Shown here one piece after another: positions 2,747 to 55,862 of a stretch of DNA of 64,000 nt. The first letter of the stretch is position 1. Each line of letters starts with the position of its first letter. The stretch spans positions 4,384,001-4,448,000 of the forward strand of contig OZ253564.1 of NCBI GenBank assembly GCA_965262915.1, written 5' to 3'. The notes beneath the pieces are model-generated. The model was not told where the DNA came from. It saw only the letters and a program-made list of their open reading frames with translations, and made no database searches. This stretch comes from Candidatus Spongiisociaceae bacterium (GTDB lineage Bacteria > Actinomycetota > Acidimicrobiia > Spongiisociales > Spongiisociaceae). A program made the position numbers and the translations under genes.

Positions 2747-2896
2747 TGTCAACCTCACTAGATGGGGGGAAGGCCACCGGCGTAATGCGGGCGGAGTGAC
2801 GACAGTATACCGGCTCTTCGGAAATGAGTGGGGAGTAGGGGATCTGCGGGGGGAGTGGTAATCCACTAGAAGTGAGGAGGGGTCCTCCATAATCGG

Positions 2897-4234
2897 GTGT
2901 TGGTAATGACATCCGAGGCAGGAGGACCCCTGTGGAAGCTGATCCCTGCGCGCATGTGCGAGTTGTTGGTAGGCCTAGGTGAGGTTGATCTGGTAGGGAT
3001 CAACGACCCGGGCGAGGGTGCACCGCTTGGGGTGGTGATCGGGTCCCGCAAGCCCCGCCCGTCCTGTGAGGCCTGTGGTGGCCCGGTGTGGTCCAAGGGT
3101 GAGCGGAGCGTGGTGTTGGTGGATTTACCGGCGTTCGGTCGGCCTGTGCGGCTGCGGTGGCGGAAACGTCGGTGGACGTGTCCGAACACCGACTGTGAGA
3201 TCAGATCGTTCATCGAGCAAGACCCCACGATTAGTCCCCAACGGGCGTTGTTGACATCCCGAGCGGCCCGGTGGGTGACCGTCCAGGTGGGTGGGCGGGG
3301 CCGTTCGGTCGACGAGGTCGCCGCAGAACTTGGTTGTGATTGGCATACGGTGAACAACGAGGTCGTCCGCTGGGGCGAAGCACTCCTGGGGGCCGACACC
3401 GATCGGATAGGCGAGGTCGGAGCTGTGGGCATCGACAAGAAGCGTTGTTCTGGCGGAAAGGCCGGTGGCGAACCAAGGTTTGGTGCACTTCTGTCGTCGA
3501 CGTGGGAGGCCACCACCCGGTTCGACATAGTCGGTGGTAGAACAGCAGAAAGCGCCGCAGCCTGGTTCCGGTCACAACCCACCGAATGGTGTGAGGCTAT
3601 CCGCTGGGCGGTGCTGGACATGTCCGGTCCTTACCGGAAGGCGTATAACCGGGTGCTCCCGAACGCTGTGCAGGTAGCGGACCCCTTCCACGTCATCCGC
3701 TTGGCCAACCAGCGTCTCGACGACCTACGACGCCGCACCCAGAACGAAACCCTCGGGCATCGAGGCCGCAAGGACGACCCGCTGTATCGGATACGCCGCC
3801 TCCTAACCGCCGCTTCCGAGAGGATCAGCGACCGGGGTCAAACCCGGCTGCGTGGTCTCCTCGATGCCGGTGACCCCTACGGGGAGGTACGCACCGCCTG
3901 GCACGCCAAGGAAACCGTGAGAGGCATCTACAAGATCGACAGTCCCGCCCTCGCTCTCCGATACACCCTCCAGCTCGCAGACGACCTCCAGGACGAATCC
4001 TGCCCACCCGAGATCAACAAGCTGGGACGTACCATCGCCCGCTGGACCCCCCAGATCACCAACTGGCACATCTCGAAGGTAACCAACAGATGCCACCGAA
4101 GCCCTCAACAACCTCATCAAACGCATCAAACGAGCAGCGTTCGGGTTACCCAACTTCGCGAACTACCGAATCCGCGCCCTTCTCTACGCGGGGAAACCCA
4201 ACTGGGACCTACTCCCATCGGTCACTCCCCACTG
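2897..4234 (+). pseudogene. ISL3 transposase, frameshifted
   Basis: Homologous to the intact copy at 27434-28732; frame breaks near 2945, 3440-3520 and 4090. Confidence 0.85.
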
Positions 4235-4249
4235 AAATCCACTCATACT

Positions 4250-4440
4250 TAGAAGGTTCCTGGGCTGGGACGGGTCTGACCCAACTGAAATCTGGCTTTG
4301 TGCCTTTTCATCGATCTGTCGGCCTGTTCCCAGCTTGGGGGTGTAACCCCCTGACCCGGGGCGGATGTGACCTTATAGGAGCTTTGATCTTCCACCACCG
4401 TGAGTGGTCTGTCCACCGCCTTCCGGGTCCGAGGATTAGG
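4250..4440 (+). ncRNA. Putative IS110 bridge RNA (A1)
   Basis: ACTGAAATC (4284-4292) and TCATCG (4308-4313) match the target; ATAGGAGC (4375-4382) and TGAGTGG (4401-4407) match the element ends; RNA boundaries approximate. Confidence 0.75.
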
Positions 4441-4473
4441 AAGTGATTCTATCCAGCAGAGGAGGAAGGTGTC

Positions 4474-5703
4474 ATGGGAGAAGATGGTCGGGTTGTGTTC
4501 GGTGGGGTTGATACCCATCGTGATACCCATGTGGCGGCGGTGGTTGATGGCGCCGGTCGGGTCCTGGGAACGGCACCGTTCGGAGCTGATCGAGTCGGCT
4601 ATGAGCAACTGGAAGACTGGTTGCGGTTACAGGGTCGCGTTAGCCGGGTAGGAGTGGAGGGCACCGGCAGCTACGGCGCCGGCCTCGCCCGCTATCTGAT
4701 GGCGGCGGGCATCGAGGTGGTAGAAGTGAACCGGCCGAACCGGCAGCTACGCCGCCAGCGGGGCGGCAAGACCGACAGTGTCGACGCCGAGGCGGCAGCT
4801 CGGGCAGCGGCCTCGGGGCAAGCTACCGCAGTTCCCAAATCTGGTGACGGACCGGTTGAGTGCATACGGATGCTGTTGGTGGCCCGCCGCTCGGCTACCA
4901 AGGCCCGCACCCAGGCCGCTAACCAGATACATTCTGTGACCGTTACTGCACCTGAGCCGCTAAAACGCCAGCTCAGAGGTCTCAAGCTCAAGGCTCGGGT
5001 TCGGGTCTGTGCCCGCTGGCGTCCCGGCCAAGCACAGACCACTGCGGCGTACGCGAAGATGGCTCTACGCTACCTGGCCCGCCGATACCAATCCCTCGAC
5101 GCAGAGATCCGCGAACTCGACGTCGAGATCCGTCGCCTCTGCGCCGAGGCTAACCCGGCTCCCTTAGCCGCCACCGGTGTGGGCCCTGACAGCGCTGCTG
5201 CGCTGCTAGTCGCTGCCGGCGACAACCCCGGACGGATGAAATCGGAACGGTCCTTCGCTGCGCTATGCGGCGCCAGCCCCGTCCAGGCATCATCGGGACA
5301 GACCATCCGGCATCGTCTCAACCGGGGCGGCAACCGCCAAGCCAACAACGCACTCTGGCGGATCGCTACCACCCGGATACGCCACGACGCAGCCACCAAC
5401 CAATACGTGGCACGGCGCCAGGGGGAAGGAAAGAACCGAAAAGAGATCATCCGCTGCCTCAAGCGGCACATCGCCCGAGAGGTCTACCGACTGCTGACCA
5501 ACCCGCCACCAACCCCGAACTGCGCCCGGCTCCGCCGCCGACGTCAACACGCCAACATCACCGTCACCCAGGCCGCCCAACAGCTCGGAACCCACCCCAG
5601 CCGCATCTCCGCACTCGAACGCGGCCGAGACCACAACCACCAACTCGCCAGCCGATACCAGACCTGGCTCCTAACCCACCAACCGGCCCCATCACCGACT
5701 TGA
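4474..5703 (+). CDS. IS110 DEDD recombinase with C-terminal XRE-like HTH
   Basis: GVDTH, GVEGTGSYG, KTDSVDA, ASSG, RGGNRQAN motifs. Confidence 0.92.
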   Translation: MGEDGRVVFGGVDTHRDTHVAAVVDGAGRVLGTAPFGADRVGYEQLEDWLRLQGRVSRVGVEGTGSYGAGLARYLMAAGIEVVEVNRPNRQLRRQRGGKTDSVDAEAAARAAASGQATAVPKSGDGPVECIRMLLVARRSATKARTQAANQIHSVTVTAPEPLKRQLRGLKLKARVRVCARWRPGQAQTTAAYAKMALRYLARRYQSLDAEIRELDVEIRRLCAEANPAPLAATGVGPDSAAALLVAAGDNPGRMKSERSFAALCGASPVQASSGQTIRHRLNRGGNRQANNALWRIATTRIRHDAATNQYVARRQGEGKNRKEIIRCLKRHIAREVYRLLTNPPPTPNCARLRRRRQHANITVTQAAQQLGTHPSRISALERGRDHNHQLASRYQTWLLTHQPAPSPT

Positions 5704-5899
5704 CAACCATAGGAGCATCGAAGAGCCAGTATACCGGCGCCTCTGCGGTTCTTACGCCGTCTGGTAGCGGTTCGAGGGTGTCCCGGCTGAAACCTTGTGG
5801 CTCGAAGCTGGTGGATCAGGGGCGGCGTAGCAGCGCGCATCCGCAGAGCCAGGTTGTGTGGGGGACTCTTTGATCGGTTGATGTCGCTGAGCGGAGGCC

Positions 5900-17713: not shown

Positions 17714-19529
17714 CCTGAATCCACCGGTAGATATTCTGTGGTTGGGGGTGGATAGACGCGGAAAGTGCCTCTGATCTGGGACAATAGCCATACGAAACAT
17801 GGTGATTGGCTCGGAGTCTGGAGGCACTTCCTGTGAGTGGAGTATTGCAGAATATCGACCGGTATGAGGCGGTTTTCGATGATGAGGGGCTGGTGGCCGA
17901 CGCTGGGTTGTTGGCGGCCGGGACGTTGATGGGTCGTTTGGGTTTGGAAGGTTTGGTGGATCGGACGGTGCGGTTGGGCGGCCGGGTGGGTGGCGCGCAT
18001 CCGGGTCGTAAGGTATGCACGTTGGTAGCTGCGATGCTGGTGGGCGCCTCCCATATTGACCATGTGGATCGGCTCCGGGCCGGTTCCACCGACCGGGTGC
18101 TGCCCCATGCGGTGATGGCCCCGTCCACTGTGGGAACCTTCCTGCGTTCGTTCACCTGGGGTCATGTACGCCAGTTGGAGAAGGTGGTGACCGTAGCGCT
18201 GGGCCGTGCGTGGGGGGCGGGCGCCGGTCCCGGCAAGGGAGCGGTGACCCTCGATGTGGACTCGACGATCTGTGAGGTGTCTGCCAAGACCGAACAAGGG
18301 GCCGCCTATGGCTACACCAAAGAGTTGGGTTATCACCCGCTGTTGGCGTTCCGAGCCGATACGGGGGAAGTGGTCGGCGCCCGTCTGCGGGAAGGAGCAT
18401 CGCAGAGGGGTGTGGTCCATTTCGTTGGGGAGACAGTGCGGCGTGTGCGACGGGCCGGGGCCAGGGGCCCGGTGAGCGTGCGGGCCGATTCGGGGTTCTG
18501 GTCCTATGGCCTCTTGGCCGCCCTCGACCGCCTCGGGGTGGGCTGGTCGATCACCTGCCCGCTGAATGCCAAGATTAGGACACTGATCAGCAATATCGAC
18601 GAAGACGCGTGGACCCCCATTGCCTATCCCGAAGGCGGGCTGGCACAAGTGGGGGAAACAGTCCTGGAGATGACCAACCCCAAGAAACGGTCGCAGAAAC
18701 GCCGGGTTCGCCTCGTGGTGCGCCGCACCCGCCTGCTCGGTTCCCAAGCCGAGCTGTGGCCCGACTGGCGATACCACGCGTTCGTCACCAACCTGGACCT
18801 GCCCGCGGCAGAAGCCGACCGGCGCCACCAACCCCGGGCCGGACAAGACGACACCGGCCACCAACCCCGCCGCGGAGAACAAGACACCGAACCGGCCGAA
18901 CTGCCGGTGGTAGAGATCGGTGACAACCCTGGGGAAGCGCACAGCCCGCTGCCCGCGGTCGAAATCGACCGGTACCACCGCCGCCACGCCACATGCGAAC
19001 TCGCCATCCGCGACCTCAAAGACTCCGGGGGTCTCGCCCACCTACCCTCCGGCGTCTTCGCAGCTAACGCCGCCTGGCTGATCTGCGCCGCCCTAGCCCA
19101 TAACCTCTACCGGCAGATAGCCCTCCTCGGGGGTACGCAGCCGCCCGGGCGGCTGGTCTGTGGACGTACCATCCGTACCCGACTGTTCGGACTCCCTGGA
19201 CGCCTCGTCAACCACGGCGGACGCCGCCTCCTGCGTCTACCCGCCCGATGGCCCTGGGCCGGCGCCTACCTAACCACCCTCACTAACCTCCGGGCGCTGC
19301 CCCAACTCAGCTGACCCGGCCCGACGGACCCGCCGCAACCATAACCAACCACCCAAACCCCGACCACACACGCCCGAAACCATCCCAACCAGCCTCCAAC
19401 ACTACCTAACCCACCAAACCACACCCACCACACCCCCGAAACCCCCCGAATCCAACCAGCCCCAACCCCTCAACCCCCCACCAACCGCACCCCGGACCAC
19501 CCCCCGGGGAGGCCGTCGGTGGATTCAGG
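17714..19529 (+). mobile_element. IS1380-family element A
   Basis: IRs CCTGAATCCACCG. Confidence 0.9.
17806..19314 (+). CDS. IS1380 transposase
   Basis: LDVDST, GYHPL, VRADSGF, E..IRDLK, F.ANAAW. Confidence 0.92.
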   Translation: MARSLEALPVSGVLQNIDRYEAVFDDEGLVADAGLLAAGTLMGRLGLEGLVDRTVRLGGRVGGAHPGRKVCTLVAAMLVGASHIDHVDRLRAGSTDRVLPHAVMAPSTVGTFLRSFTWGHVRQLEKVVTVALGRAWGAGAGPGKGAVTLDVDSTICEVSAKTEQGAAYGYTKELGYHPLLAFRADTGEVVGARLREGASQRGVVHFVGETVRRVRRAGARGPVSVRADSGFWSYGLLAALDRLGVGWSITCPLNAKIRTLISNIDEDAWTPIAYPEGGLAQVGETVLEMTNPKKRSQKRRVRLVVRRTRLLGSQAELWPDWRYHAFVTNLDLPAAEADRRHQPRAGQDDTGHQPRRGEQDTEPAELPVVEIGDNPGEAHSPLPAVEIDRYHRRHATCELAIRDLKDSGGLAHLPSGVFAANAAWLICAALAHNLYRQIALLGGTQPPGRLVCGRTIRTRLFGLPGRLVNHGGRRLLRLPARWPWAGAYLTTLTNLRALPQLS

Positions 19530-23491: not shown

Positions 23492-25307
23492 CCTGAATCC
23501 ACCGACGGCCTCCCCGGGGGGTGGTCCGGGGTGCGGTTGGTGGGGGGTTGAGGGGTTGGGGCTGGTTGGATTCGGGGGGTTTCGGGGGTGTGGTGGGTGT
23601 GGTTTGGTGGGTTAGGTGGTGTTGGAGGCTGGTTGGGATGGTTTCGGGCGTGTGTGGCTGGGGTTTGGGTGGTTGGTTATGGTTGTGAGGGGTCCGTCGG
23701 GCCGGGTTAGCTGAGTTGGGGCAGCGCCCGGAGGTTAGTGAGGGTGGTTAGGTAGGCGCTGGCCTAGGGCCATCGGGCGGGTAGACGCAGCAGGCGGCGT
23801 CCGCCATGGTTCACGACCCGTCCAGGGAGCCCGAACAGTCGGGTACGGATAGTTCGTCCACAGACCAGCCGCCCAGCCCGATGCGTACCCCCGAGGAGGG
23901 CTATCTGCCGGTAGAGGTTATGAGCTAGGGCGGCGCAGATCAGCCAGGCGGCGTTAGCTGCGAAGACGCCGGAGGGTAGGTGGGCGAGACCCCCGGAGTC
24001 TTTGAGGTCGCGGATGGCGAGTTCGCATGTGGCGTGGCGGCGGTGGTACCGGTCGGCTTCGACCGCGGGCAGCGGGCTGTGCGCCTCCCCAGGGTTGTCA
24101 CCGGTCTCTACCGCCGACAGTTCGGCCACTTCGGTGTCTTGTTCGCCTCGGCGGGGTTGGTGGCCGGTGTCGTCTTGTCCGGCCCCGGGTTGGTGGTGCC
24201 GGTCGGCTTCGACCGCGGCTAGGTCCAGGTTGGTGACCAAGGTGTGGTACCGCCAGTCGGGCCATAGCTGGGCTTGGGAACCGAGCAGGCGGGTGCGGCG
24301 CACCACGAGACGGACCCGGCGCCGCTGCGACCGTTTCTTGGGGTTGGTCATCTCCAGGACGGTTTCCCCCACTTGTGCTTCGCCGCCCCGGGGATAGTCG
24401 ATGGGGGTCCACGCGTCTTTGTCGATATTGCTGATCAGTGTCCTGACCTTGTCGTTCACCTGGGTGGTGATCGACCATCCCACCCCGAGGTGGTCGAGGG
24501 CGGCCAAGAGGGCATAGGACCAGAACCCAGAATCGGCCCGCACGCTCACCGGGCCCCTGGCCCCGGCCCGTCGCACACGCCGGATCGTCTCCCCAACGAA
24601 ATGGACCACACCCCGCTGCGATGCTCCTGCACGCAGACGGGCACCGACCACCTCCCCCGTATCGGCTCGGAACGCCAACAGAGGGTGATAACCCAACTCC
24701 TTGGTGTAGCCGTAAGCGGCCCCTTGTTTGGTCTTGCCCGACACCGCACAGATCGTCGAGTCCAAATCAACGGTCACCGCTCCCTTACCGGGACCGGCGC
24801 CCGCCCGCCACGCACGACCCAGCGTCAAGGTCACCACCTTCTCCAACTGGCGTACATGACCCCAGGTGAACGAACGCAGGAAGGTTCCCACCGTGGAAGG
24901 GGCCATCACCGCATGGGGCAACACCCGATCAGTGGAACCCGCCCGGAGCCGACCCACATGATCAATATGAGAGGCGCCCACCAGCATCGCAGCTACCAAC
25001 GTGCACACCTTACGACCCGGATGCGCGCCACCCACCCGGCCGCCCAACCGCACCGTCCGATCCACCAAACCTTCCAAACCCAAACGGTCCATCAACGTCC
25101 CGGCCGCCAACAACCCAGCGTCGGCCACCAGCCCCTCATCATCGAAAACCGCCTCATACCGGTCGATATTCTGCAATACTCCACTCACAGGAAGTGCCTC
25201 CAGACTCCGAGCCAATCACCATGTTTCGTATGGCTATTGTCCCAGATCAGAGGCACTTTCCGCGTCTATCCACCCCCAACCACAGGATATCTACCGGTGG
25301 ATTCAGG
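23492..25307 (-). mobile_element. IS1380-family element B (transposase 23764-25215, premature stop)
   Basis: Same IRs as copy A; TGG>TAG near the C-terminus. Confidence 0.9.
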
Positions 25308-27420: not shown

Positions 27421-28853
27421 GGCTCATCGGATTTCAGTGGGGAGTGACCGATGGGAGTAGGTCCCAGTTGGGTTTCCCCGCGTAGAGAAGGGCGCGGATT
27501 CGGTAGTTCGCGAAGTTGCGGAACCCGAACGCTGCTCGTTTGATCCGTTTGATGAGGTTGTTGAGGGCTTCGGTGGGTCCGTTGGTTACCTTCGAGATGT
27601 GCCAGTTGGTGATCTGGGGGGTCCAGCGGGCGATGGTACGACCCAGCTTGTTGATCTCGGGTGGGCAGGATTCGTGTTGGAGGTCGTCTGCGAGCTGGAG
27701 GGTGTATCGGAGAGCAAGGACCGGACTCTCGATCCCGTAGATGCCTCGTACCGTCTCTTTCGCGTGCCAGGCTGTGCGCACTTCCCCGTAGGGGTCACCA
27801 GCATCGAGGAGACCACGCAGCCGTATTTGACCCCGGTCGCTGATCCTCTCATGCGCAGCGGTTAGGAGCCGCCGTATCCGATACAGCGGGTCATCCTTGC
27901 GGCCTCGATGCCCGAGGGTTTCGTTTTGGACTCTTCGTCGTACCTCGTCGAGACGCTGGTTGGCGAGGCGGATGACGTGGAACGGGTCCGCTACCTGCAG
28001 CGCGTGCGGCAGCACCCTGTCATACGCCTTCCGATACGAACCGGACATGTCCAACACCGCCCAGCGGATAGCCTCACACCATTCGGTGGGTTGTGACCGG
28101 AACCAGGCTGCGGCGCTTTCTGCTGTTCTACCAGGGACTATGTCGATCAGCTGGTGGCCGCCAACGTCGACGACAGAGGTGCACCAGACTTTGGTACGCC
28201 AACGGCCCCGACGCCAGAACAACGTCTCGTCCACTCCCACAGCTTCGACGGTCCCGACCCGATCGGTGTCTGCTTCCAGCAGCGCTTCGCCCCAGCGGCC
28301 AACCTCTTTGTTCACCGTATGCCAATCACAACCAAGTTCTGCGGCGACCTCGTCGACCGAACGGCCCCGCCCACCCACCTGGATGGTCACCCACCGGGCC
28401 GCTCGGGATGTCAACAACGCCCGTTGGGGACCAATCTTGGGGTCTTGTTCGATGAACGATCTGAGCGCACAGTCGGGGTTCGGACATGTCCAGCGCCGTT
28501 TCCGCCACCGCAGCCGCACAGGCCGGCCGAACGCCGGTAAATCCACCAACACAACCGTCCGATAGCCCTTCGACCACACCGACCCGCCACAGGACTCACA
28601 CAACGGCCGGGGCTTGCGGGACCGGATCACCACCTCCAACGGTGCCTCCTCGCCCGGGTCGTTGATCCCTACCAGATCAACCTCACCTAGGCCTACCAAC
28701 TTCTCGCACATGCGCGTAGGATCAGCTTCCACAGGGGTCCTCCTGCCTCGGATGTCATTACCAACACCCGATTATGGAGGACCCCTCCTCACTTCTGGTG
28801 GATTCCAACTCCCCCTGGCAGATCCCCTACTCCCCACTCATTTCCGAAGAGCC
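27421..28853 (-). mobile_element. ISL3-family IS (copy 2, intact)
   Basis: IRs GGCTC..; perfect TSD ACTATCGT at 27413-27420 and 28854-28861. Confidence 0.95.
27434..28732 (-). CDS. ISL3 transposase
   Basis: Zn finger, GVDE, DM, DPFH, TNGPTEALN, GFRN. Confidence 0.95.
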   Translation of the reverse strand: MEADPTRMCEKLVGLGEVDLVGINDPGEEAPLEVVIRSRKPRPLCESCGGSVWSKGYRTVVLVDLPAFGRPVRLRWRKRRWTCPNPDCALRSFIEQDPKIGPQRALLTSRAARWVTIQVGGRGRSVDEVAAELGCDWHTVNKEVGRWGEALLEADTDRVGTVEAVGVDETLFWRRGRWRTKVWCTSVVDVGGHQLIDIVPGRTAESAAAWFRSQPTEWCEAIRWAVLDMSGSYRKAYDRVLPHALQVADPFHVIRLANQRLDEVRRRVQNETLGHRGRKDDPLYRIRRLLTAAHERISDRGQIRLRGLLDAGDPYGEVRTAWHAKETVRGIYGIESPVLALRYTLQLADDLQHESCPPEINKLGRTIARWTPQITNWHISKVTNGPTEALNNLIKRIKRAAFGFRNFANYRIRALLYAGKPNWDLLPSVTPH

Positions 28854-35024: not shown

Positions 35025-36499
35025 CGAGGCCTCTCCCTGGATCGGCGATGTTGGCTATTCACCGATTCCAGCGGGGCCTCACCCCCATTCCAAGGATTTC
35101 ACCCCACCCAACCCACGATGCTCCTATGTTTTGCAAATCGGTTGTTGGGTGAGCCAGTGTTGGTATCGGGTAGCGAGGTGGTGGTTGTGGTGGAGGCCTC
35201 GTTCGAGTTGTGATAGGACGGTGGGCTGCGTGTCGAGGTGGTGGGCGGCGCGGGTGAGGGTGATTCGGGCTTGGGTTCGGCGGTGGCGTAGGTCGGTTCC
35301 GTGGGGTGTTGGGGGCGGGTCGGTGAGGAGGTGGTATATCTCGCGGGCGATGTGGCGTTTCAGGCAGCGGATTATTTCGGTGTGGGTTTTTCCTTCCGCT
35401 TCGCGTCTGGTGACATATTCTTTGGTGGCAGCGTCGGTGCGCATTCGGTTGGTAGCGCATCGGCCATAGCGCGTTGTTTGCTTGGCGGTTGCCGCCTCGG
35501 TTGAGACGGTGCCGCACTATCGGTCCCGATGATGCGGCTACGGGGCTGAGGGCGCAGAGGGCCGCGAAGGCTGCTTCTGAGTTCATACGTCGTGGGTTGT
35601 CACCAGCAGCGACCAGGAGAGCAGCGGCGGTGTCGGGTCCTACTCCGTAGGCGGCCAGCAACGCAGGGTTGGCCCGTGCGCAGAGACCGCGGATCTGTTT
35701 GTCGACCTGTGTGATCTCGGTGTCTAGATTCTGGTATCGGCGGGCTAGAAGCCGCAGTGCCCGCTTGGCGTATGCCGCAGTGGTCTGCGCTGTGGCTGGA
35801 CGGAAGCGGGCACAGACCTTGACCTGTGTCCGGGTCGGGAGATCCCGGAGTTGGTGTTTGACCTGCTCAGGAGCGGTTACTACCAGAGCGTGCAGCTGGT
35901 TGGCGGCCTGGGTGCGGGCTTTGACCGCGGAGCGGCGAACTACCCGCAGCATCCTGGTGGCTTCTACCGGTCCGTCGCCCGTCTTGGGTAGGGCGGTCGC
36001 TTCACCGTTGAGAGCAGCCCGGGCTGCTGCCTCAGCGTCGGTGGTGTCATCCTTGCCCCGCCGCCGGCGAAGCTGGCGGTTGGGACGGTTCACCTCCACC
36101 ACACCGATACCCGCCTCGGTGAGATGACGTGTGAGCCCAGCGCCGTAGCTGCCCGTTCCCCCCACCCCGACCCGGCAGATCCGACCCCACGACTCCATCG
36201 GGGCGACCAGTTGGGCATAACCGGAGGTATCAGCCCCGAACTGGGCGGATCCCAACAGGCGACCCGCGCCATCCACCACCGCCCCAACGTGGAAATCCCG
36301 ATGTGTGTCCACCCCGCCAACCACACCTACCCCATCGGCCCTAACTTGCTCCGCCATGTGCTCGCCTTTCGTCGGCTGCCTAGAATCCAACCCCCGGAGC
36401 CGGGCAGAGCGGCGGACAGAACACTCACGGTGCAAAAGTCGAAGGCTCCTAATGGGGGTCCACCACTTCTGCCGGTGTTTCTGGGAGGGTGTGGTGGTT

Positions 36500-36660
36500 G
36501 AGCTGGCTGGCCGGTGAGTACTCCAGGCTCCTGGAACGTTGATTCCTGCTGATAGATCGTGCCCCGGCCGGTGAGTGAGGGCCGCTTGTAGCGCTCATGG
36601 GGTGGCGTGCCACAGAGCACTGATCCATTAGGTCGCCGCCAGGCGTTCTCCACAGCTCAG
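36500..36660 (+). ncRNA. Putative bridge RNA of IS110-B
   Basis: AGGCTCCT and TGATAG match the target; TGGGGTG and CCATTAG match the donor; boundaries approximate. Confidence 0.78.
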
Positions 36661-36694
36661 CAGAGAGTGGACCCGCGCAAGGAAGGGGCGAAGG

Positions 36695-37915
36695 ATGATC
36701 TTTGTGGGTAACGACTGGGCTGAGGGACATCACGATGTGTATCTCATGGACGAGGAGGGAGCCCGCCTGGGGTTCTCCCGTCTACCGGAGGGCCTGGCGG
36801 GTGTGGCCCGCTTGCACGAGATGGTCGCCAAACACGCATCGGATGCGGCCGAGGTGGTGGTAGGGATCGAGACCGACCGTGGTCTGTGGGTCGGTGCTCT
36901 GGTCGGGGCGGGTTATCAGGTGTATGCGATCAACCCGATGGCAGTTTCCCGTTACCGGGACCGTCACCGCCAGGGTGGAGCCAAATCAGACCGAGGAGAC
37001 GCCAAGGTGTTAGCCGATCTGGTACGCACCGACCGTCACAACCACCGTCCGGTAGCCGGGGACAGCCCCGAATCGGAAGGTATCAAGATCATGGCCCGTG
37101 CCCATCAGAACCTGATCTGGGCGCGGACCCGCCACACCAACCAGATGCGCAACGCGCTGCGCGAGTACTACCCTGCAGCCCTGGAAACGTTCGATGACCT
37201 GGCCCATCGCGACGCCCTAGCCATACTCGGTCGGGCACCCACCCCCACCCGGGGCGCCCGCCTGACACTTCCCCAGATCAGAGCAGCGGTACAGAGAGGC
37301 GGACGGAAACGCAACCTCGACAAGGTTGCCCGCCGCATACAGAAAGGCCTCAGAGGTGCCCACCTCACCGCACCCGGGCCGGTCGCGGACGCCTTCGGGA
37401 CGATCGTTGCTTCGCTGGTCAAGATCATCGCGGAAACCAACCGCCAGATCGCCGACCTCGAAGAAACCCTCGAGACCCATTTTGAAGAACACCCGGACGC
37501 CGTCATCTACCACTCCCAGCCAGGACTCGGTACCGTGCTCGGCGCCCGGGCGCTCGGTGAGTTCGGGGATGACCCCGACCGCTACACCAGCGCCAAGTCT
37601 CGCAGAAACTACGCCGGCACGTCGCCCATCACCATCGCATCAGGCCGCAAACACGCCGTCGTTGCCCGCCAGGTCCGCAACCGGCGACTCCCCAACGCTT
37701 TGGACCAATGGGCATTCTGTTCCCTCAACAACAGTCCAGGAGCGCGAGCCTTCTACGACCAACGAAAAGCAGCCGGCGACCTCCACCACCAAGCACTACG
37801 AGCCCTCGCCAACCGGCTCGTCGGCATCCTCCACGGCTGCCTCAAACACCGAACCCCCTACGACGAACACACCGCCTGGGCACACCGAACCATGCTCGAC
37901 CGAGCCGCAGCTTGA
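36695..37915 (+). CDS. IS110 recombinase (different clade, intact ORF)
   Basis: GNDWA, GIET, KSDRGDA, ASG. Confidence 0.92.
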   Translation: MIFVGNDWAEGHHDVYLMDEEGARLGFSRLPEGLAGVARLHEMVAKHASDAAEVVVGIETDRGLWVGALVGAGYQVYAINPMAVSRYRDRHRQGGAKSDRGDAKVLADLVRTDRHNHRPVAGDSPESEGIKIMARAHQNLIWARTRHTNQMRNALREYYPAALETFDDLAHRDALAILGRAPTPTRGARLTLPQIRAAVQRGGRKRNLDKVARRIQKGLRGAHLTAPGPVADAFGTIVASLVKIIAETNRQIADLEETLETHFEEHPDAVIYHSQPGLGTVLGARALGEFGDDPDRYTSAKSRRNYAGTSPITIASGRKHAVVARQVRNRRLPNALDQWAFCSLNNSPGARAFYDQRKAAGDLHHQALRALANRLVGILHGCLKHRTPYDEHTAWAHRTMLDRAAA

Positions 37916-38109
37916 CATTTACGCTCCTGGGGTGTCTATCAAGTCACCCCGCTCCCCGGTTCAGGGTTCCCACCCGGGGCCAGGTCGACAGATCGTGGGA
38001 AAGGCACCAAAGGCCAGTTTTCGCGTGAGTCAGACCCGGCCCCAACCGGAAACCCTATAAGTATGAGTGTTTCCGCGCAGGGCCAACTACTCATCTAGGC
38101 TAGGCTGTC

Positions 38110-38370: not shown

Positions 38371-40336
<1,966 letters not shown>

Positions 40337-43024: not shown

Positions 43025-43112
43025 TCACACCCCAGGCCGGAGACAGGCCGACAGATCATAGAAAAGGCACAACGGCCAGTTTGTCAAAGGGTCAGACCTG
43101 TCCCCGGCCCAA
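43025..43112 (-). ncRNA. Orphan IS110-A-type target-binding hairpin
   Basis: Scaffold aligns with A1-A3; different guides; no recombinase nearby. Confidence 0.6.
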
Positions 43113-52688: not shown

Positions 52689-52891
52689 GCTCCCTTCTGC
52701 CCAGGTGAAGATCCGCCGGGTCGGCGTCGTGCGGACGCTGATATCGAGGATGACAAGTGACCAGTCTTGGCGGGTGGCGCGGTCGGCTAGGGCGAGGATG
52801 TCGGAGGAGTTACGGCCGAAGACGGGAGACGACCGACACGTCAGCCCGGCCTTCGTTGAGGCCCTGGAGGATGCGCCTTATTGGGCTCATC

Positions 52892-54367
52892 GATGCTCCT
52901 ATGGTTGTCAAATCGATGATGGGGCGGTTTGGTGGGTGTGCAGCCAGTTCTGGTATCGGGTGGCGAGGTGGTGGTTGTGGTCTCGGCCGTGTTCGAGTGC
53001 TGAGATGCGATTGGGGTGGGTTCCGACGGCTTGGGCGGTCTGGGTGAGGGTGATGCCGCGTTGTTGGCGTCGGGTGCGTAGGCGGGCGCAGTTCGGGGTT
53101 GGGTGCGGGTTGGTGAGGAGCCGGTAGATTTCTCGGGCGATGTGCCGCTTGAGGCAGCGGATGATCTCCTTTTTCTTCTTGCCCTCGGCCTTGCGTCGTG
53201 CCACGTAGGCTTTGGTGGCGGCGTCGGTGCGCATCCGGGTGGTAGCGATCCGCCATAGCGCGTTGTTGGCTTGGCGGTTGCCGCCCCGGTTGAGACGATG
53301 CCGAAGGGTTCGTCCTGATGACGCCTGGACGGGGCTGGCGCCGCACAGCGCCGCGAAAGACCGTTCCGATTTCATTCGCTTGGGGTTGTCGCCGGCGGCG
53401 ACCAACAACGCGGCGGCTGTGTCAGGACCGACACCTTCTGTGGCCAGCAGGGCCGGGTTGGCCTGGGCGCAGAGACGCCGGATCTCGGCTTCGAGTTGGG
53501 CGATCTCTACGTCGAGGGCCTGATACCGGCGGGCCAAATGCTGTAGGGCACGCTTCGCATACGCGGTGGTGGTGTGGTCTGTGCCGGGTCGGAACCGGGC
53601 ACAGGTTTTGACCCGTGCTTTGAGATTCATGCCCTTTAGCTGGTGTTTTAGCGGCTCGGGAGCTGTTACGACCAGCGCATGTATCTGGTTAGCGGCCTGG
53701 GTGCGGGCCTTGACCGCGGAGCGGCGCACCACCCACAGCATCCGTATGCACTCGACCGGGCCCACACCGGACTTGGGAACCGCGGTTGCTTCGCCCGAGG
53801 CAGCTGCCCGAGCTGCCGCCTCGGCGTCGACGCTGTCGGTCTTGCCGCCCTTCTGGCGGCGTAGTTGGCGGTTGGGGCGGTTGACCTCCACCACCTCGAT
53901 GTTCATCTCGGTCAGGTAACGGGCCAGGCCGGCGCCGTAACTACCCGTTCCTTCCACCCCAACCCGAACCAACTGTCCCCGCGACTCGAACCAGGTGACC
54001 ATTCGCCGATAACCGGATTCCTCCACCGCGAAAGACTCCGATCCCAGTACCCGCCCGACGCCATCCACCACCGCTGCTACGTGGACGTCCCGATGGGTGT
54101 CAACCCCACCGTAGATAATCTGGTCTGCTTCTCCCATGATGCTCTTCTCCTCTAGGGGATAGAATCATTTCCGATCCCCGGACCCGTGTGCGGTTGGACA
54201 GGCCACTCACGGTGGAGAAGTTGAAGGCTCCTATTAGGTCACATCCGCCCCGGGTCAGGGGGTTACGCCCCAGGCCGGGAACGGGCCGACAGATCGATGA
54301 AAAGGCACAAGGCCAGATTTCAGTTGGGTCAGACCCGCCCTAGCCCAGGAACCCTCTAATTATGAGT
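52892..54367 (-). mobile_element. IS110 element A2
   Basis: Same ends and same insertion point as A1. Confidence 0.9.
52908..54137 (-). CDS. IS110 recombinase with C-terminal XRE-like HTH
   Basis: Diverged paralog of 4474-5703. Confidence 0.92.
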   Translation of the reverse strand: MGEADQIIYGGVDTHRDVHVAAVVDGVGRVLGSESFAVEESGYRRMVTWFESRGQLVRVGVEGTGSYGAGLARYLTEMNIEVVEVNRPNRQLRRQKGGKTDSVDAEAAARAAASGEATAVPKSGVGPVECIRMLWVVRRSAVKARTQAANQIHALVVTAPEPLKHQLKGMNLKARVKTCARFRPGTDHTTTAYAKRALQHLARRYQALDVEIAQLEAEIRRLCAQANPALLATEGVGPDTAAALLVAAGDNPKRMKSERSFAALCGASPVQASSGRTLRHRLNRGGNRQANNALWRIATTRMRTDAATKAYVARRKAEGKKKKEIIRCLKRHIAREIYRLLTNPHPTPNCARLRTRRQQRGITLTQTAQAVGTHPNRISALEHGRDHNHHLATRYQNWLHTHQTAPSSI

Positions 54368-55862
54368 GGATTTCAGTGGGGAGTGACCGATGGGAGTAGG
54401 TCCCAGTTGGGTTTCCCCGCGTAGAGAAGGGCGCGGATTCGGTAGTTCGCGAAGTTGGGTAACCCGAACGCTGCTCGTTTGATCCGTTTGATGAGGTTGT
54501 TGAGGGCTTCGGTGGGTCCGTTGGTTACCTTCGAGATGTGCCAGTTGGTGATCTGGGGGGTCCAGCGGGCGATGGTACGACCCAGCTTGTTGATCTCGGG
54601 TGGGCAGGATTCGTGTTGGAGGTCGTCTGCGAGCTGGAGGGTGTATCGGAGAGCAAGGACCGGACTCTCGATCCCGTAGATGCCTCGTACCGTCTCTTTC
54701 GCGTGCCAGGCTGTGCGCACTTCCCCGTGGGGGTCACCAGCGTCGAGGAGACCACGCAGCCGTATTTGACCGCGGTCGCTGATCCTCTCATGCGCAGCGG
54801 TTAGGAGCCGCCGTATCCGATACAGCGGGTCATCCTTGCGGCCTCTGTGTCCCAGGGTTTCGTTTTGGACTCTTCGTCGTACCTCGTCGAGACGCTGGTT
54901 GGCGAGGCGGATGACGTGGAACGGGTCCGCTACCTGCAGCGCGTGCGGTAACACCCTGTCATACGCCTTCCGATACGAACCGGACATGTCCAACACCGCC
55001 CAGCGGATAGCCTCACACCATTCGGTGGGTTGTGACCGGAACCAGGCTGCGGCGCTTTCTGCTGTTCTACCAGGGACTATGTCGAACCGGCTGGTGGCCG
55101 CCAACGTCGACGACAGAGGTGCACCAGACTTTGGTACGCCAACGGCCCCGACGCCAGAACAACGTCTCGTCCACTCCCACAGCTTCGACGGTCCCGACCC
55201 GATCGGTGTCTGCTTCCAGCAGCGCTTCGCCCCAGCGGCCAACCTCTTTGTTCACCGTATGCCAATCACAACCAAGTTCTGCGGCGACCTCGTCGACCGA
55301 ACGGCCCCGCCCACCCACCTGGATGGTCACCCACCGGGCCGCTCGGGATGTCAACAACGCCCGTTGGGGACCAATCTTGGGGTCTTGTTCGATGAACGAT
55401 CTGAGCGCACAGTCGGTGTTCGGACATGTCCAGCGCCGTTTCCGCCACCGCAGCCGCACAGGCCGGCCGAACGCCGGTAAATCCACCAACACCACACTCC
55501 GATAGCCCTTCGACCACACCGACCCGCCACAGGCCACACACAACGGCCGGGGCTTGCGGGACCGGATCACCACCTCCAACGGTGCCTCCTCGCCCGGGTC
55601 GTTGATCCCTACCAGATCAACCTCACCTAGGCCTACCAACTTCTCGCACATGCGCGCAGGGATCAGCTTCCACAGGGGTCCTCCTGCCTCGGATGTCATT
55701 ACCAACACCCGATTATGGAGGACCCCTCCTCACTTCTGGTGGATTCCAACTCCCCCTGGCAGATCCCCTACTCCCCACTCATTTCCGAAGAGCCGGTTAT
55801 TGATACTTGGTTTGAGGGCGTTCCTGGTGGTTGCTGCTGTAGGGATGACCGGATCCATCCAT

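Follow-up and report, generated by a model that had tools for sequence, protein, structure and literature searches.

What determines the insertion points of three related insertion sequences (ISs), A1, A2 and A3, each of which lies inside the terminal inverted repeat (IR) of an ISL3 element in the window, i.e. the whole stretch of 64,000 nucleotides analyzed here? An initial annotation had suggested that guides in the non-coding ends of these elements change together with their targets, and had marked 4231-5735. Element A1 is found there, with boundaries of 4241-5719 once its junctions are compared with an empty site, and the remainder of the marked span includes the two halves of its target. 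The parts of A1 and of its surroundings are as follows.

2812-4240: ISL3-1 copy hosting A1
4231-4240, + strand: left target half of A1, ACTGAAATC followed by core C, within the right IR of the ISL3-1 host
4241-5719, + strand: A1, a complete IS110-group element of 1479 bp
4262-4335, + strand: target-binding stem-loop of A1 as predicted by a consensus fold (outer stem, internal loop of 13+13 nt, inner GGC/GCC hairpin)
4284-4292, + strand: left target guide (LTG) ACTGAAATC, in the same sense as the left flank
4308-4313, + strand: right target guide (RTG) TCATCG, antisense to core C followed by GATGA
4375-4382, + strand: candidate donor guide ATAGGAGC, agreeing in sense with the right end (CATAGGAGCATC)
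4401-4406, + strand: candidate donor guide TGAGTG, reverse complement of core C plus ACTCA (left end)
4474-5703, + strand: recombinase gene, 409 aa, with DEDD_Tnp_IS110, Transposase_20 and a C-terminal HTH
5700-5705, + strand: TTGACA in the right end of A1, a candidate -35 box read from the sequence
5720-5727, + strand: right half of the A1 target, the 8 bp severed from the tip of the right IR in ISL3-1, GAAGAGCC

Elsewhere in the window there are two further elements, a remnant of a fourth scaffold, and an ISL3-1 copy that has stayed empty.

27421-28853: intact, empty ISL3-1 copy
27424-27438, - strand: unoccupied target of guide group G1, ACTGAAATC-C-GATGA, in the right IR of that intact copy
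35059-36357, - strand: A3 recombinase gene
35117-38068, - strand: A3, an element of guide group G2, 2952 bp with its nested IS110 counted
approximately 36448-37937, + strand: clade-B IS110 nested in the left end of A3 (donor-binding loop), which it interrupts
37994-37999, - strand: A3 RTG CCCACG
38017-38025, - strand: A3 LTG CGCGAAAAC
38069-38084, - strand: 16-bp tip of the ISL3-2 left IR, GGCCCTGCGCGGAAAC, severed by A3
43049-43098, - strand: remnant with a fourth scaffold copy, guides TTGACAAAC and TCTATG
52884-52891: ISL3-1 tip severed by A2, GATGAGCC, which is the right flank of A2
52892-54367, - strand: A2, a complete element of 1476 bp
52908-54137, - strand: A2 recombinase gene
54295-54300, - strand: A2 RTG TCATCG
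54316-54324, - strand: A2 LTG ACTGAAATC
54368-55794: ISL3-1 copy hosting A2

By their domains and layout we assign A1, A2 and A3 to the IS110 family, IS110 group. Pfam models PF01548 (DEDD RuvC-like, N-terminal) and PF02371 (transposase, C-terminal) match all three recombinases as well as that of the nested element, and the cut-off of 140 bits for NF033542 ("IS110 family RNA-guided transposase") is exceeded by A1 (197 bits), A2 and the nested element, with 210 bits being the other score reported. The layout is that of the IS110 group, with a long left end (233 nt in A1) upstream of the gene that contains the RNA region and a short right end (16 nt in A1), which leaves no downstream non-coding region of the IS1111 kind; nor were the 11-13 bp subterminal IRs of that group found. 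The termini, ACTCAT... on the left and ...GGAGCATC on the right, are not inverted repeats of one another. A search of Rfam at gathering score returned four matches in the window, none of them on the left ends of A1-A3. The A3 recombinase gene is probably frameshifted, and its alignment to A1 stops at residue 295.

The junctions of A1 read ...ACTGAAATCC|ACTCAT...GGAGCATC|GAAGAGCC, and the left flank of A2 is identical to that of A1, as are its guides, even though the two recombinases share just 77% identity (313/407 residues); the earlier statement that diverged recombinases use one insertion site is thus borne out. A3 has different guides and a different site, with junctions ...CGCGGAAAC|ACTCAT...GGAGCATC|GTGGGT. 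Each of the four guide strings that had been pointed out in A1, A2 and A3 occurs at the position given for it, and the empty site at 27421-27438 has ACTGAAATCCGATGAGCC as its reverse complement. The scaffold, guides and ISL3 left IR of A3 had also been recognized correctly, with the split of this element by the nested IS110 going unrecorded. Beyond A3, the body of ISL3-2 resumes below 35116 (GTGGGTTGGG...), and its right end is absent at the position predicted for a full-length copy. No left end or gene was recognizable around the remnant scaffold.

The left ends of A1, A2 and A3 contain one common RNA scaffold (4273-4321 in A1) with a variable internal loop, of which the 5' side repeats 9 nt of the left flank in sense, and the 3' side, read as its reverse complement, gives core C followed by 5 nt of the right flank. 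Modeling of the non-coding ends had been proposed as a check, and in the consensus fold of 94 loop-region sequences the 13+13 nt loop lies within 20 predicted pairs, of which 10 show compensatory changes; the loop columns are variable in the same alignment. The scaffold pattern (49-51 nt) occurs four times in the window against 0.00 expected, and ACTGAAATC five times against 0.24 expected, a count reached by 0/100 shuffles, so that a chance origin of the guide and scaffold strings is excluded. On the donor side, ATAGGAGC and TGAGTG agree with the right and left ends of the element itself, and across groups an A/G change at the first donor-guide base is mirrored at the right end, GTAGGAGC in the loop going with GTAGGAGC at that end. 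When entire bridge regions were folded with RNAalifold, no convincing donor-binding loop emerged, and the left end of A1 folded as a single sequence had an unremarkable energy (z = -1.4), and is therefore uninformative.

The relation between guide and flank extends well beyond the window. The genome holds 34 scaffolds with at least nine guide pairs; the LTG matches at 8/9 or better in 28/33 scaffolds having a left end, and the RTG at 5/6 or better in 29/31 having a right end. When both guides are summed, own flanks score 15/15 in seven groups and 14/15 in one, versus a maximum of 12/15 (mean 7.4) for the flanks of other groups, and empty sites with the sequence predicted from the guides were found for G1 (16), G2 (6), G3 (9), G4 (2) and G7 (6). 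In related genomes, 7/11 elements have a guide match of at least 8/9. A comparison of guides and flanks across homologs had been recommended, and in our scan of public genomes an element's own guide (at least 8/9) lies directly upstream in 82/109 elements versus 38/2180 controls, or, counted by guide pair, 56/77. One element in another genome (L171) has the same guides and is inserted in the same ISL3 IR, and for L167 the left junction is present and the right end was not found. Exceptions are one off-target G1 copy (G000:C1:3663625-3665109; left target 5/9, right target 2/6) and four further elements with a guide match of just 4-7/9. In group G8 (G000:C1:287-292 kb), a nest of clade-A and clade-B elements allows two readings, and its right flank is not firm. 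The claim that guides change with the target thus holds in the genome, its relatives and public genomes.

All resolved targets in this genome are inside other mobile elements: in ISL3-1 the right IR, in ISL3-2 the two IRs together with the two subterminal ends, in an IS3-family element the left IR, in an IS21-family element the left end, and in another IS110 the 3' portion of its transposase gene. A1 and A2 cut 8 bp from the tip of the ISL3-1 right IR, and A3 16 bp from the tip of the ISL3-2 IR. The specialization on IS ends proposed for this lineage is therefore broader than had been claimed. Such a target class appears to be new, though IS ends may already figure in the target tables that supplement the bridge-RNA papers. 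A Pfam survey of left flanks across the broader scaffold family found DDE_Tnp_1 in 3 and Zn_ribbon_ISL3 in 3 of 138 ORFs (72 flanks), counts per family that are lower bounds and not rates.

The base common to donor and target is a single C, the donor reading TC and the targets AC, CC or TC, in agreement with the initial annotation, which had described a single-C core rather than CT. The CT core of the IS621-like subgroup was not found in clade A (donor junction ...CAT-C-ACT...); the nested clade-B element has one. The register difference of one C between A1/A2 and A3 is likewise real. In groups G2, G4, G5, G7 and G8 the core is covered by both guides, and this canonical register fits the 14-nt, 7+2+5 geometry of IS621, whereas in G1 (A1, A2), G3, G6 and G9 the 9-nt LTG ends one base short of the core, a +1 shift for which no counterpart is stated for IS621. 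For coverage of the core by both guides, which is the rule in IS621, loop position 10 (U or C) would have to face the core in these four groups. The trinucleotide preceding the LTG (CCA vs TCA) was considered as a predictor of the register and rejected, since L052, from a related genome, combines CCA with the canonical register and the public-genome scan contains mixed cases.

We consider it likely, with a probability of roughly 0.85, that A1-A3 are IS110 elements which combine a recombinase with a bridge RNA in the left end, the guides of which have been naturally reprogrammed to the ends of other ISs. Each element would encode a DEDD/serine recombinase (a class read from domain matches) and a bridge RNA, the latter within the left end of 233 nt, with the internal loop of the first stem-loop taking the role of target-binding loop, and a second conserved region carrying the donor guides ATAGGAGC (right end) and TGAGTG (complement of the left end); one scaffold would thereby come to spell the ends of different ISs. 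By analogy with IS621, we infer that the element is excised as a circle and integrates by recombination at the single shared C. Across the putative circle junction, TTGACA lies 17 nt upstream of CATACT (4244-4249 in A1; CATAAT in A2), and this right-end/left-end junction would form a promoter driving expression of the RNA, which is predicted to begin shortly past CATACT/CATAAT and to measure about 150-190 nt. One assembled contig from an RNA library spans 4232-4419, which is also compatible with DNA carry-over.

Two alternatives deny a guiding role to the RNA, or a repeated one. The strings could be passive copies of target DNA, the protein alone picking the site, e.g. via the C-terminal HTH (HTH_31/HTH_3) that A1 and A2 have, and of which the Pfam scan reported none in A3. 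This we hold to be extremely improbable, as each string keeps its place within a loop that covarying stems enclose, one in sense and the other in antisense as in IS621, and vary with the flank on a constant scaffold across 77 guide pairs, while the A1 and A2 proteins differ by 23% and have guides and site in common. Alternatively, ISL3::IS110 composites could have been transposed or duplicated as units, as might be suspected from the on-target G1 copies (16/17), every one of which adjoins an ISL3-1 right end, and from a weakly positive correlation of ISL3 and IS110 pairwise identities (r=0.20). Spread of this kind is highly unlikely to account for the A1/A2 copies: the observed r was reached in 117/2000 Mantel permutations, 15 pairs combine IS110 copies at least 99% identical with ISL3 hosts only 88-98.5% identical, and 0/78 pairs of occupied copies look like a duplicated composite, none being at least 99% identical in both parts. 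Near-identical ISL3 copies also bear different IS110 subtypes, and the 16 empty G1 sites have the exact target. Repeated, independent insertion directed by the guides fits these observations.

A different matter is what insertion means for the host element. It parts the IR tip from the remaining ISL3, so that the copy is probably disabled, and it is plausible, as the initial annotation had proposed, that IS110 insertion immobilizes its host. Against this, IS ends may be neutral multi-copy safe harbors, to which IS110s are programmed because insertions elsewhere have been purged, with occupation making no real difference to the host or to how ISL3 moves, and no antagonism or immobilization involved. 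Other members of the IS110 and IS1111 groups do use repeated harmless sites (REP, attC, Tn21 IRs; PMC11208160, PMC11187229), and across the scaffold family at large, transposase domains were seen in just a minority of the left flanks. Transposase frames are intact in 3/13 occupied versus 15/24 empty ISL3 copies (p=0.038), a difference that is not robust, since with ten identical empty copies collapsed to one it becomes 6/15 for the empty copies (p=0.43). A neutral harbor is nevertheless unlikely in our judgment, given that a cut 8 or 16 bp inside the IR displaces the tip by approximately 1.5 kb from the remaining end, that duplicated composites are lacking among the occupied pairs, and that ten 100%-identical ISL3-1 copies, evidently copied recently, are all unoccupied, with just one identical copy occupied. 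Extending the view that occupation silences hosts, we can imagine an RNA-guided "food web" of ISs, in which guide variants target other ISs, this antagonism influencing how heavily the genome is loaded with them. One IS110 scaffold would have radiated against four sites in two ISL3 types, as well as the IR of an IS3, the end of an IS21 and the gene of an IS110; guides of a second IS110 clade would aim at the donor-guide motif and right end of the first, and those of one first-clade variant match the right end of the second (a candidate locus). Five ISL3-1 copies read ACTGAAACGCGATGA, all of them empty, and would be escape mutants. This picture is speculative, and we regard it as doubtful.

The RNA-guided elements described here are specialized on the terminal repeats of other ISs, and even on one another, and if occupation truly disables the host element, this would be a built-in brake on IS expansion. 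As a natural reprogramming series, in which one compact scaffold carries at least nine guide pairs in this one genome and 77 in public genomes, with empty and occupied sites, they reveal which loop positions tolerate change, suggest that an xC core works in nature, and point to a left guide that can take either of two registers separated by one base, knowledge that might help in designing guides for bridge recombinases. With the mechanism already established, their value is as a resource and for natural history: targeting of this kind is not new, having been published as bridge RNA or seekRNA (IS621; Durrant et al. 2024, Hiraizumi et al. 2024), and was itself found through guide/target covariation of a like kind (PMC11208160).

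The E. coli element IS621 resembles ours in both protein domains, in a long left end encoding the RNA (here a putative one) with a variable first internal loop and a conserved second (here a candidate), in its guides (5' sense, 3' antisense, with donor guides, here candidates, copying the element's own ends), and in the boxes of a candidate junction promoter, -35 in the right end and -10 in the left end (PMC11208158, PMC11208160). In IS621, base-pairing by the 5' loop side takes up 8-9 nt of the bottom strand and that by the 3' side 4-7 nt of the top strand (PMC11208160), and of the two core bases the first varies and the second is near-invariant (PMC11208158). The elements differ in their core (CT there, a single shared C here), in the pairing of G1, G3, G6 and G9 one base further from the core, in A1-type left ends that lack a separate 5' stem-loop, and in their targets, which are REP elements there and, as known from sequence alone, the ends of other ISs here.

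A second parallel is with IS4321/IS5075, which Partridge and Hall reportedly described in 2003 as targeting the terminal IRs of Tn21-family transposons. Mentioned in the seekRNA study (PMC11187229), they are IS110-superfamily elements that insert at a fixed point inside the terminal IR of another transposon, as ours do, but as members of the IS1111 group they have subterminal IRs and an RNA that lies downstream of the gene, and their targets are 38-bp IRs of the Tn3 family on proteobacterial plasmids, whereas the elements here are of the IS110 group and target ISL3, IS3, IS21 and IS110 within one chromosome. The same study presents ISEc11/ISXne4 and ISEc21/ISMch6, with transposases approximately 72% identical, a common scaffold, and different target segments and sites (PMC11187229; Siddiquee et al. 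2024). Those are single pairs from different hosts, whereas here at least nine guide pairs occur in one genome, together with many empty and occupied sites.

The three clade-A IS110 elements of the window (A1, A2 and A3), all inserted in ISL3 ends and adjoining ISL3-family transposase genes, start with ACTCAT and end with GGAGCATC:

4241-5719, + strand, A1
52892-54367, - strand, A2
35117-38068, - strand, A3, 2952 bp long because a second IS110 is nested inside it

The genes of all three carry DEDD_Tnp_IS110 and Transposase_20 domains, and those of A1 and A2 score 197 and 210 bits, respectively, with the NCBIfam model NF033542, "IS110 family RNA-guided transposase" (cut-off 140). The A1 and A2 proteins are 77% identical (313/407); A3 is 70% identical to A1, and its recombinase gene is probably frameshifted, since the alignment ends at A1 residue 295. 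All strings quoted in the initial annotation are present where it placed them, and ACTGAAATC occurs five times in the window versus 0.24 expected.

The left ends of A1, A2 and A3 align over one common scaffold, the core of which, GGTCTGAC-13 nt-GGC...GCCTT-7 nt-ATCTGTCG, occurs four times in the window (0.00 expected). A consensus fold of 94 non-identical copies (3 from the window and 91 from public genomes) consists of an outer stem, a 13+13 nt internal loop and a small GGC/GCC hairpin, with 20 predicted pairs, 10 of which keep their pairing through two-sided changes. The guides described earlier correspond to two variable stretches of this loop, 9 nt of its 5' side and 6 nt of its 3' side, i.e. 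the left and right target guides (LTG and RTG) of a bridge RNA. Two further motifs downstream of the target loop are kept in all copies: [A/G]TAGGAGC, which has the same sense as the right end (...[A/G]TAGGAGCATC) and whose A/G base covaries with that end, and TGAGTG, the complement of C+ACTCA at the left end. By analogy with IS621, the reference bridge-RNA system, these would be the donor guides; the fold of a second (donor) loop was not recovered in our folding attempts. The fourth scaffold copy in the window (43049-43098, - strand; guides TTGACAAAC and TCTATG) lacks both an identifiable left end and a downstream recombinase gene, and is therefore a remnant.

Across the genome, a single contig of 5.06 Mb, there are 34 scaffold copies, 33 of them with a recognisable left end, bearing nine guide pairs (G1-G9; A1 and A2 belong to G1 and A3 to G2). 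The LTG matched the left flank at 8 or more of 9 positions in 28/33 copies, and the complement of the RTG matched the core C together with 5 nt of the right flank at 5 or more of 6 positions in 29/31. One of the two right-flank misses, at 4462393+, is an artefact in which the right end of a nested copy was scored; behind its own right end the flank reads CCCAC. The other is a true off-target G1 copy (3663625-3665109 of the same contig), which has intact guides, lies outside any ISL3 between ...CCAAAGAACCCC and ACCGCCGTC, matches its guides at 5/9 and 2/6 positions and represents a natural off-target insertion. The refuting case named in the initial annotation, the same guides at unrelated sites, is therefore absent from 16 of 17 G1 copies and present in one. 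When guides and targets were tabulated 9x9, own pairs scored 15/15 in seven groups and 14/15 in one, versus a best of 12 and a mean of 7.4 across groups, which bears out, over nine pairs, the claim that guides vary together with the target. Exact guide-predicted empty sites number 16 for G1 (GATGA 12, GAAGA 4), 6 for G2, 9 for G3, 2 for G4 and 6 for G7.

The donor junction (...GCAT-C-ACTCAT...) and the targets have only the base C in common, as the initial annotation had proposed; immediately before it the donor carries T, and the targets carry A, C or T. Read alongside IS621 data, this points to an "xC" core, with C instead of T as the putative invariant second position. The one-base register difference, first noted among A1, A2 and A3, proved to be systematic across guide groups. 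The ninth LTG base is the core C in G2, G4, G5, G7 and G8, as in the 7+2+5 geometry of IS621, whereas the nine LTG bases stop just short of the core in G1, G3, G6 and G9, where the loop base that follows, U or C, would lie opposite it. G6, with T as ninth guide base and a target reading T-C, shows this shift to be real. The empty G2 sites are all in the canonical register (6, versus 0 in the shifted one), and the matches listed for public genomes include, for left ends of the ACTCAT type, 11 canonical and 5 shifted guide pairs. We looked for a scaffold feature that predicts the register and found none.

Targets of the nine guide pairs (IR, terminal inverted repeat, with the distance of the site from the IR tip in brackets; ISL3-1 and ISL3-2, the two ISL3 types hosting insertions)
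G1: ISL3-1, right IR (8 bp)
G2: ISL3-2, both IRs (16 bp)
G3: an IS3-family element, left IR (12 bp)
G4: ISL3-2, subterminal on the right
G5: another IS110-family transposase gene, internally in its 3' coding part
G6, G9 and several relatives: an IS21-family element, repeated motif lying subterminally in its left end
G7: ISL3-2, subterminal on the left
G8: guides match the right-end tip of a nested clade-B IS110, at a locus with two possible readings

ISL3-1 is 1433 bp long, and its left IR, which differs from the right at three guide positions, is unused; the ISL3-2 protein is about 35% identical to that of ISL3-1. The IS3-family assignment follows from NF033516 (203 bits, cut-off 160), that of the IS21-family element from NF033546 at 157 bits, under the cut-off of 160, plus IstB, and the G5 target gene has a Transposase_20 match (E = 6e-23). 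The wider scaffold family presents mixed flanks: among 138 ORFs in 72 left flanks, transposase domains are in the minority (DDE_Tnp_1 and Zn_ribbon_ISL3 three times each, DDE_3 and DUF4096 twice each, others once each) and ordinary genes are found too, and the ISL3, IS3 or IS21 proteins of this genome have matches in 35/139 loci. Targeting of IS ends is thus strong in this genome's lineage and recurs elsewhere, without being universal for the scaffold. The LTGs of G1 (ACTGAAATC) and G6 (ACTGAAATT) differ by one base and their RTGs are unrelated, and the ISL3-1 IR and IS21-end targets have ...CACTGAAAT... in common; this common half-site may have been a stepping stone in retargeting, an idea for which a "half-match" preprint (10.64898/2026.08.31.748434) offers a comparison.

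Proteins matching A1 at E<1e-60 were found in 19/61 genomes, counting the window's own and one unpublished genome that supports none of the results given here, and among the loci fetched from relatives, 11 elements bear the scaffold, 7 with a left-flank match of 8/9 or better. Scanning one genome per species for the scaffold pattern gave at least 113 stretches, and those listed hold 114 elements, of which 109, with 77 distinct guide pairs, had enough upstream sequence for analysis. Among these listed matches, the element's own LTG recurred at 8/9 or better within 140 nt upstream in 82/109 elements (56/77 guide pairs), usually 31-36 nt ahead of the scaffold and abutting the left end, versus 38/2180 in a control with LTGs of unrelated elements. 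In another genome, one element (L171) has the guides of G1 and occupies the same right IR of ISL3, with GATGAGCC following. Another (L167; guides CGAGATTTC and TCTTCG) adjoins an ISL3 gene 68% identical to ISL3-1, and its site, for which we found a left junction (...CCCGAGATTTCC followed directly by ACTCAT) and no right one, is the homologous IR position with altered letters. Public-run evidence consists of assembled contigs: those of two DNA-type runs and one RNA-library run match ISL3 up to 4240 and continue with GATGAGCC... or GAAGAGCC...; these are empty ISL3 ends and locate the break precisely at the core C. A contig of the RNA library spans the junction and target loop (4232-4419), which is no proof of transcription.

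The 37 full-length ISL3-1 copies comprise 13 occupied (IS110-bearing) and 24 empty ones. A transposase frame of at least 425 codons is kept in 3/13 occupied versus 15/24 empty copies (p=0.038). The intact empties include ten identical copies, and collapsing these changes the comparison to 3/13 versus 6/15 (p=0.43). These ten were evidently copied recently; one more identical copy is occupied. Of the 78 pairs that the occupied copies form, not one reaches 99% identity in the ISL3 and IS110 parts alike, and in 15 pairs IS110s at least 99% identical sit inside ISL3 hosts 88-98.5% identical, which argues that the IS110s entered diverged ISL3 copies one by one, with no sign of a moved composite. 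In a Mantel test of ISL3 against IS110 identities, the observed correlation was reached in 117/2000 permutations. One-by-one entry of this kind is what immobilisation of the ISL3 predicts, and speaks for it indirectly. The ISL3-1 copy occupied by A1 (2897-4252, compared with 27434-28732) has an extra base in its transposase gene at about 4091-4092, and its DDE match is the weaker one (2e-35, versus 1e-57 in the empty copy); it is probably a pseudogene. Five ISL3-1-like copies (at 479336, 1720264, 1601850, 3227218 and 179705 of the genome contig), all empty and with broken transposase frames, read ACTGAAACGCGATGAGCC at the target, with two guide mismatches beside the core; they could be escape variants or merely an old subfamily.

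The element nested in A3 belongs to a second group, clade B, and several Rfam families reach the gathering score in the window:

36448-37937, + strand, clade-B IS110 with a CT-type core, nested in A3 at its donor-guide region; its recombinase (406 aa) is encoded at 36695-37915
37516-37597, - strand, Ms_AS-4, inside and antisense to the clade-B recombinase gene
17715-17832, - strand, Ms_IGR-7
25189-25306, + strand, Ms_IGR-7
39887-40006 (about 39.9 kb), - strand, ALIL pseudoknot

The ALIL pseudoknot we take to be the frameshift element of IS3-type elements, and the "sRNA" families in the window appear to be pieces of insertion sequences. Clade B has 11 full copies in the genome. Three lie in clade-A donor loops, where the target (...AAGGCTCC/TATCAAG, the slash marking the junction) is the A guide ATAGGAGCC in reverse complement; another directly adjoins the right end of a clade-A element, and the other seven lie within or next to heptamer repeats, (GACACCT)n. 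In the clade-B left end, two variable segments covary with these three target classes, which means that clade A is in turn a programmed target of clade B. A nest at 287000-292000 of the genome contig combines a clade-A element carrying G8 guides (ACTAGACAC and CTGGGG) with two clade-B copies beside the left IR of an IS3. The tip of the clade-B right end, AGACAC/CCCAGG, agrees with the G8 guides, which suggests reciprocal targeting between the clades, and the order of events in the nest has two possible readings.

Neither our full-text literature search nor the passages of the papers cited here describe an IS110-group element that is programmed to ends of ISL3, IS3 or IS21; supplementary target tables may hold such cases. 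The passages available from three 2024 papers supply the comparison. Siddiquee et al. report natural cases of redirection among related elements and refer to IS4321/IS5075 as elements whose targets are Tn21-family IRs (PMC11187229). Durrant et al. tied the IS110 RNA to its target by covariation over 5,511 target-RNA pairs, and the core is part of both pairings of the IS621 bridge RNA (PMC11208160). According to Hiraizumi et al., the second core base is almost invariant and the first less conserved, GT, AT and TT cores are functional, and the top strand is cleaved after position 9 (PMC11208158). The observation of the initial annotation is thus confirmed and its interpretation largely right. 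The mechanism is not new, because the window elements agree with the published IS110 bridge-RNA scheme point by point; the system is a member of this family in which the core is xC and the register varies naturally by one base.
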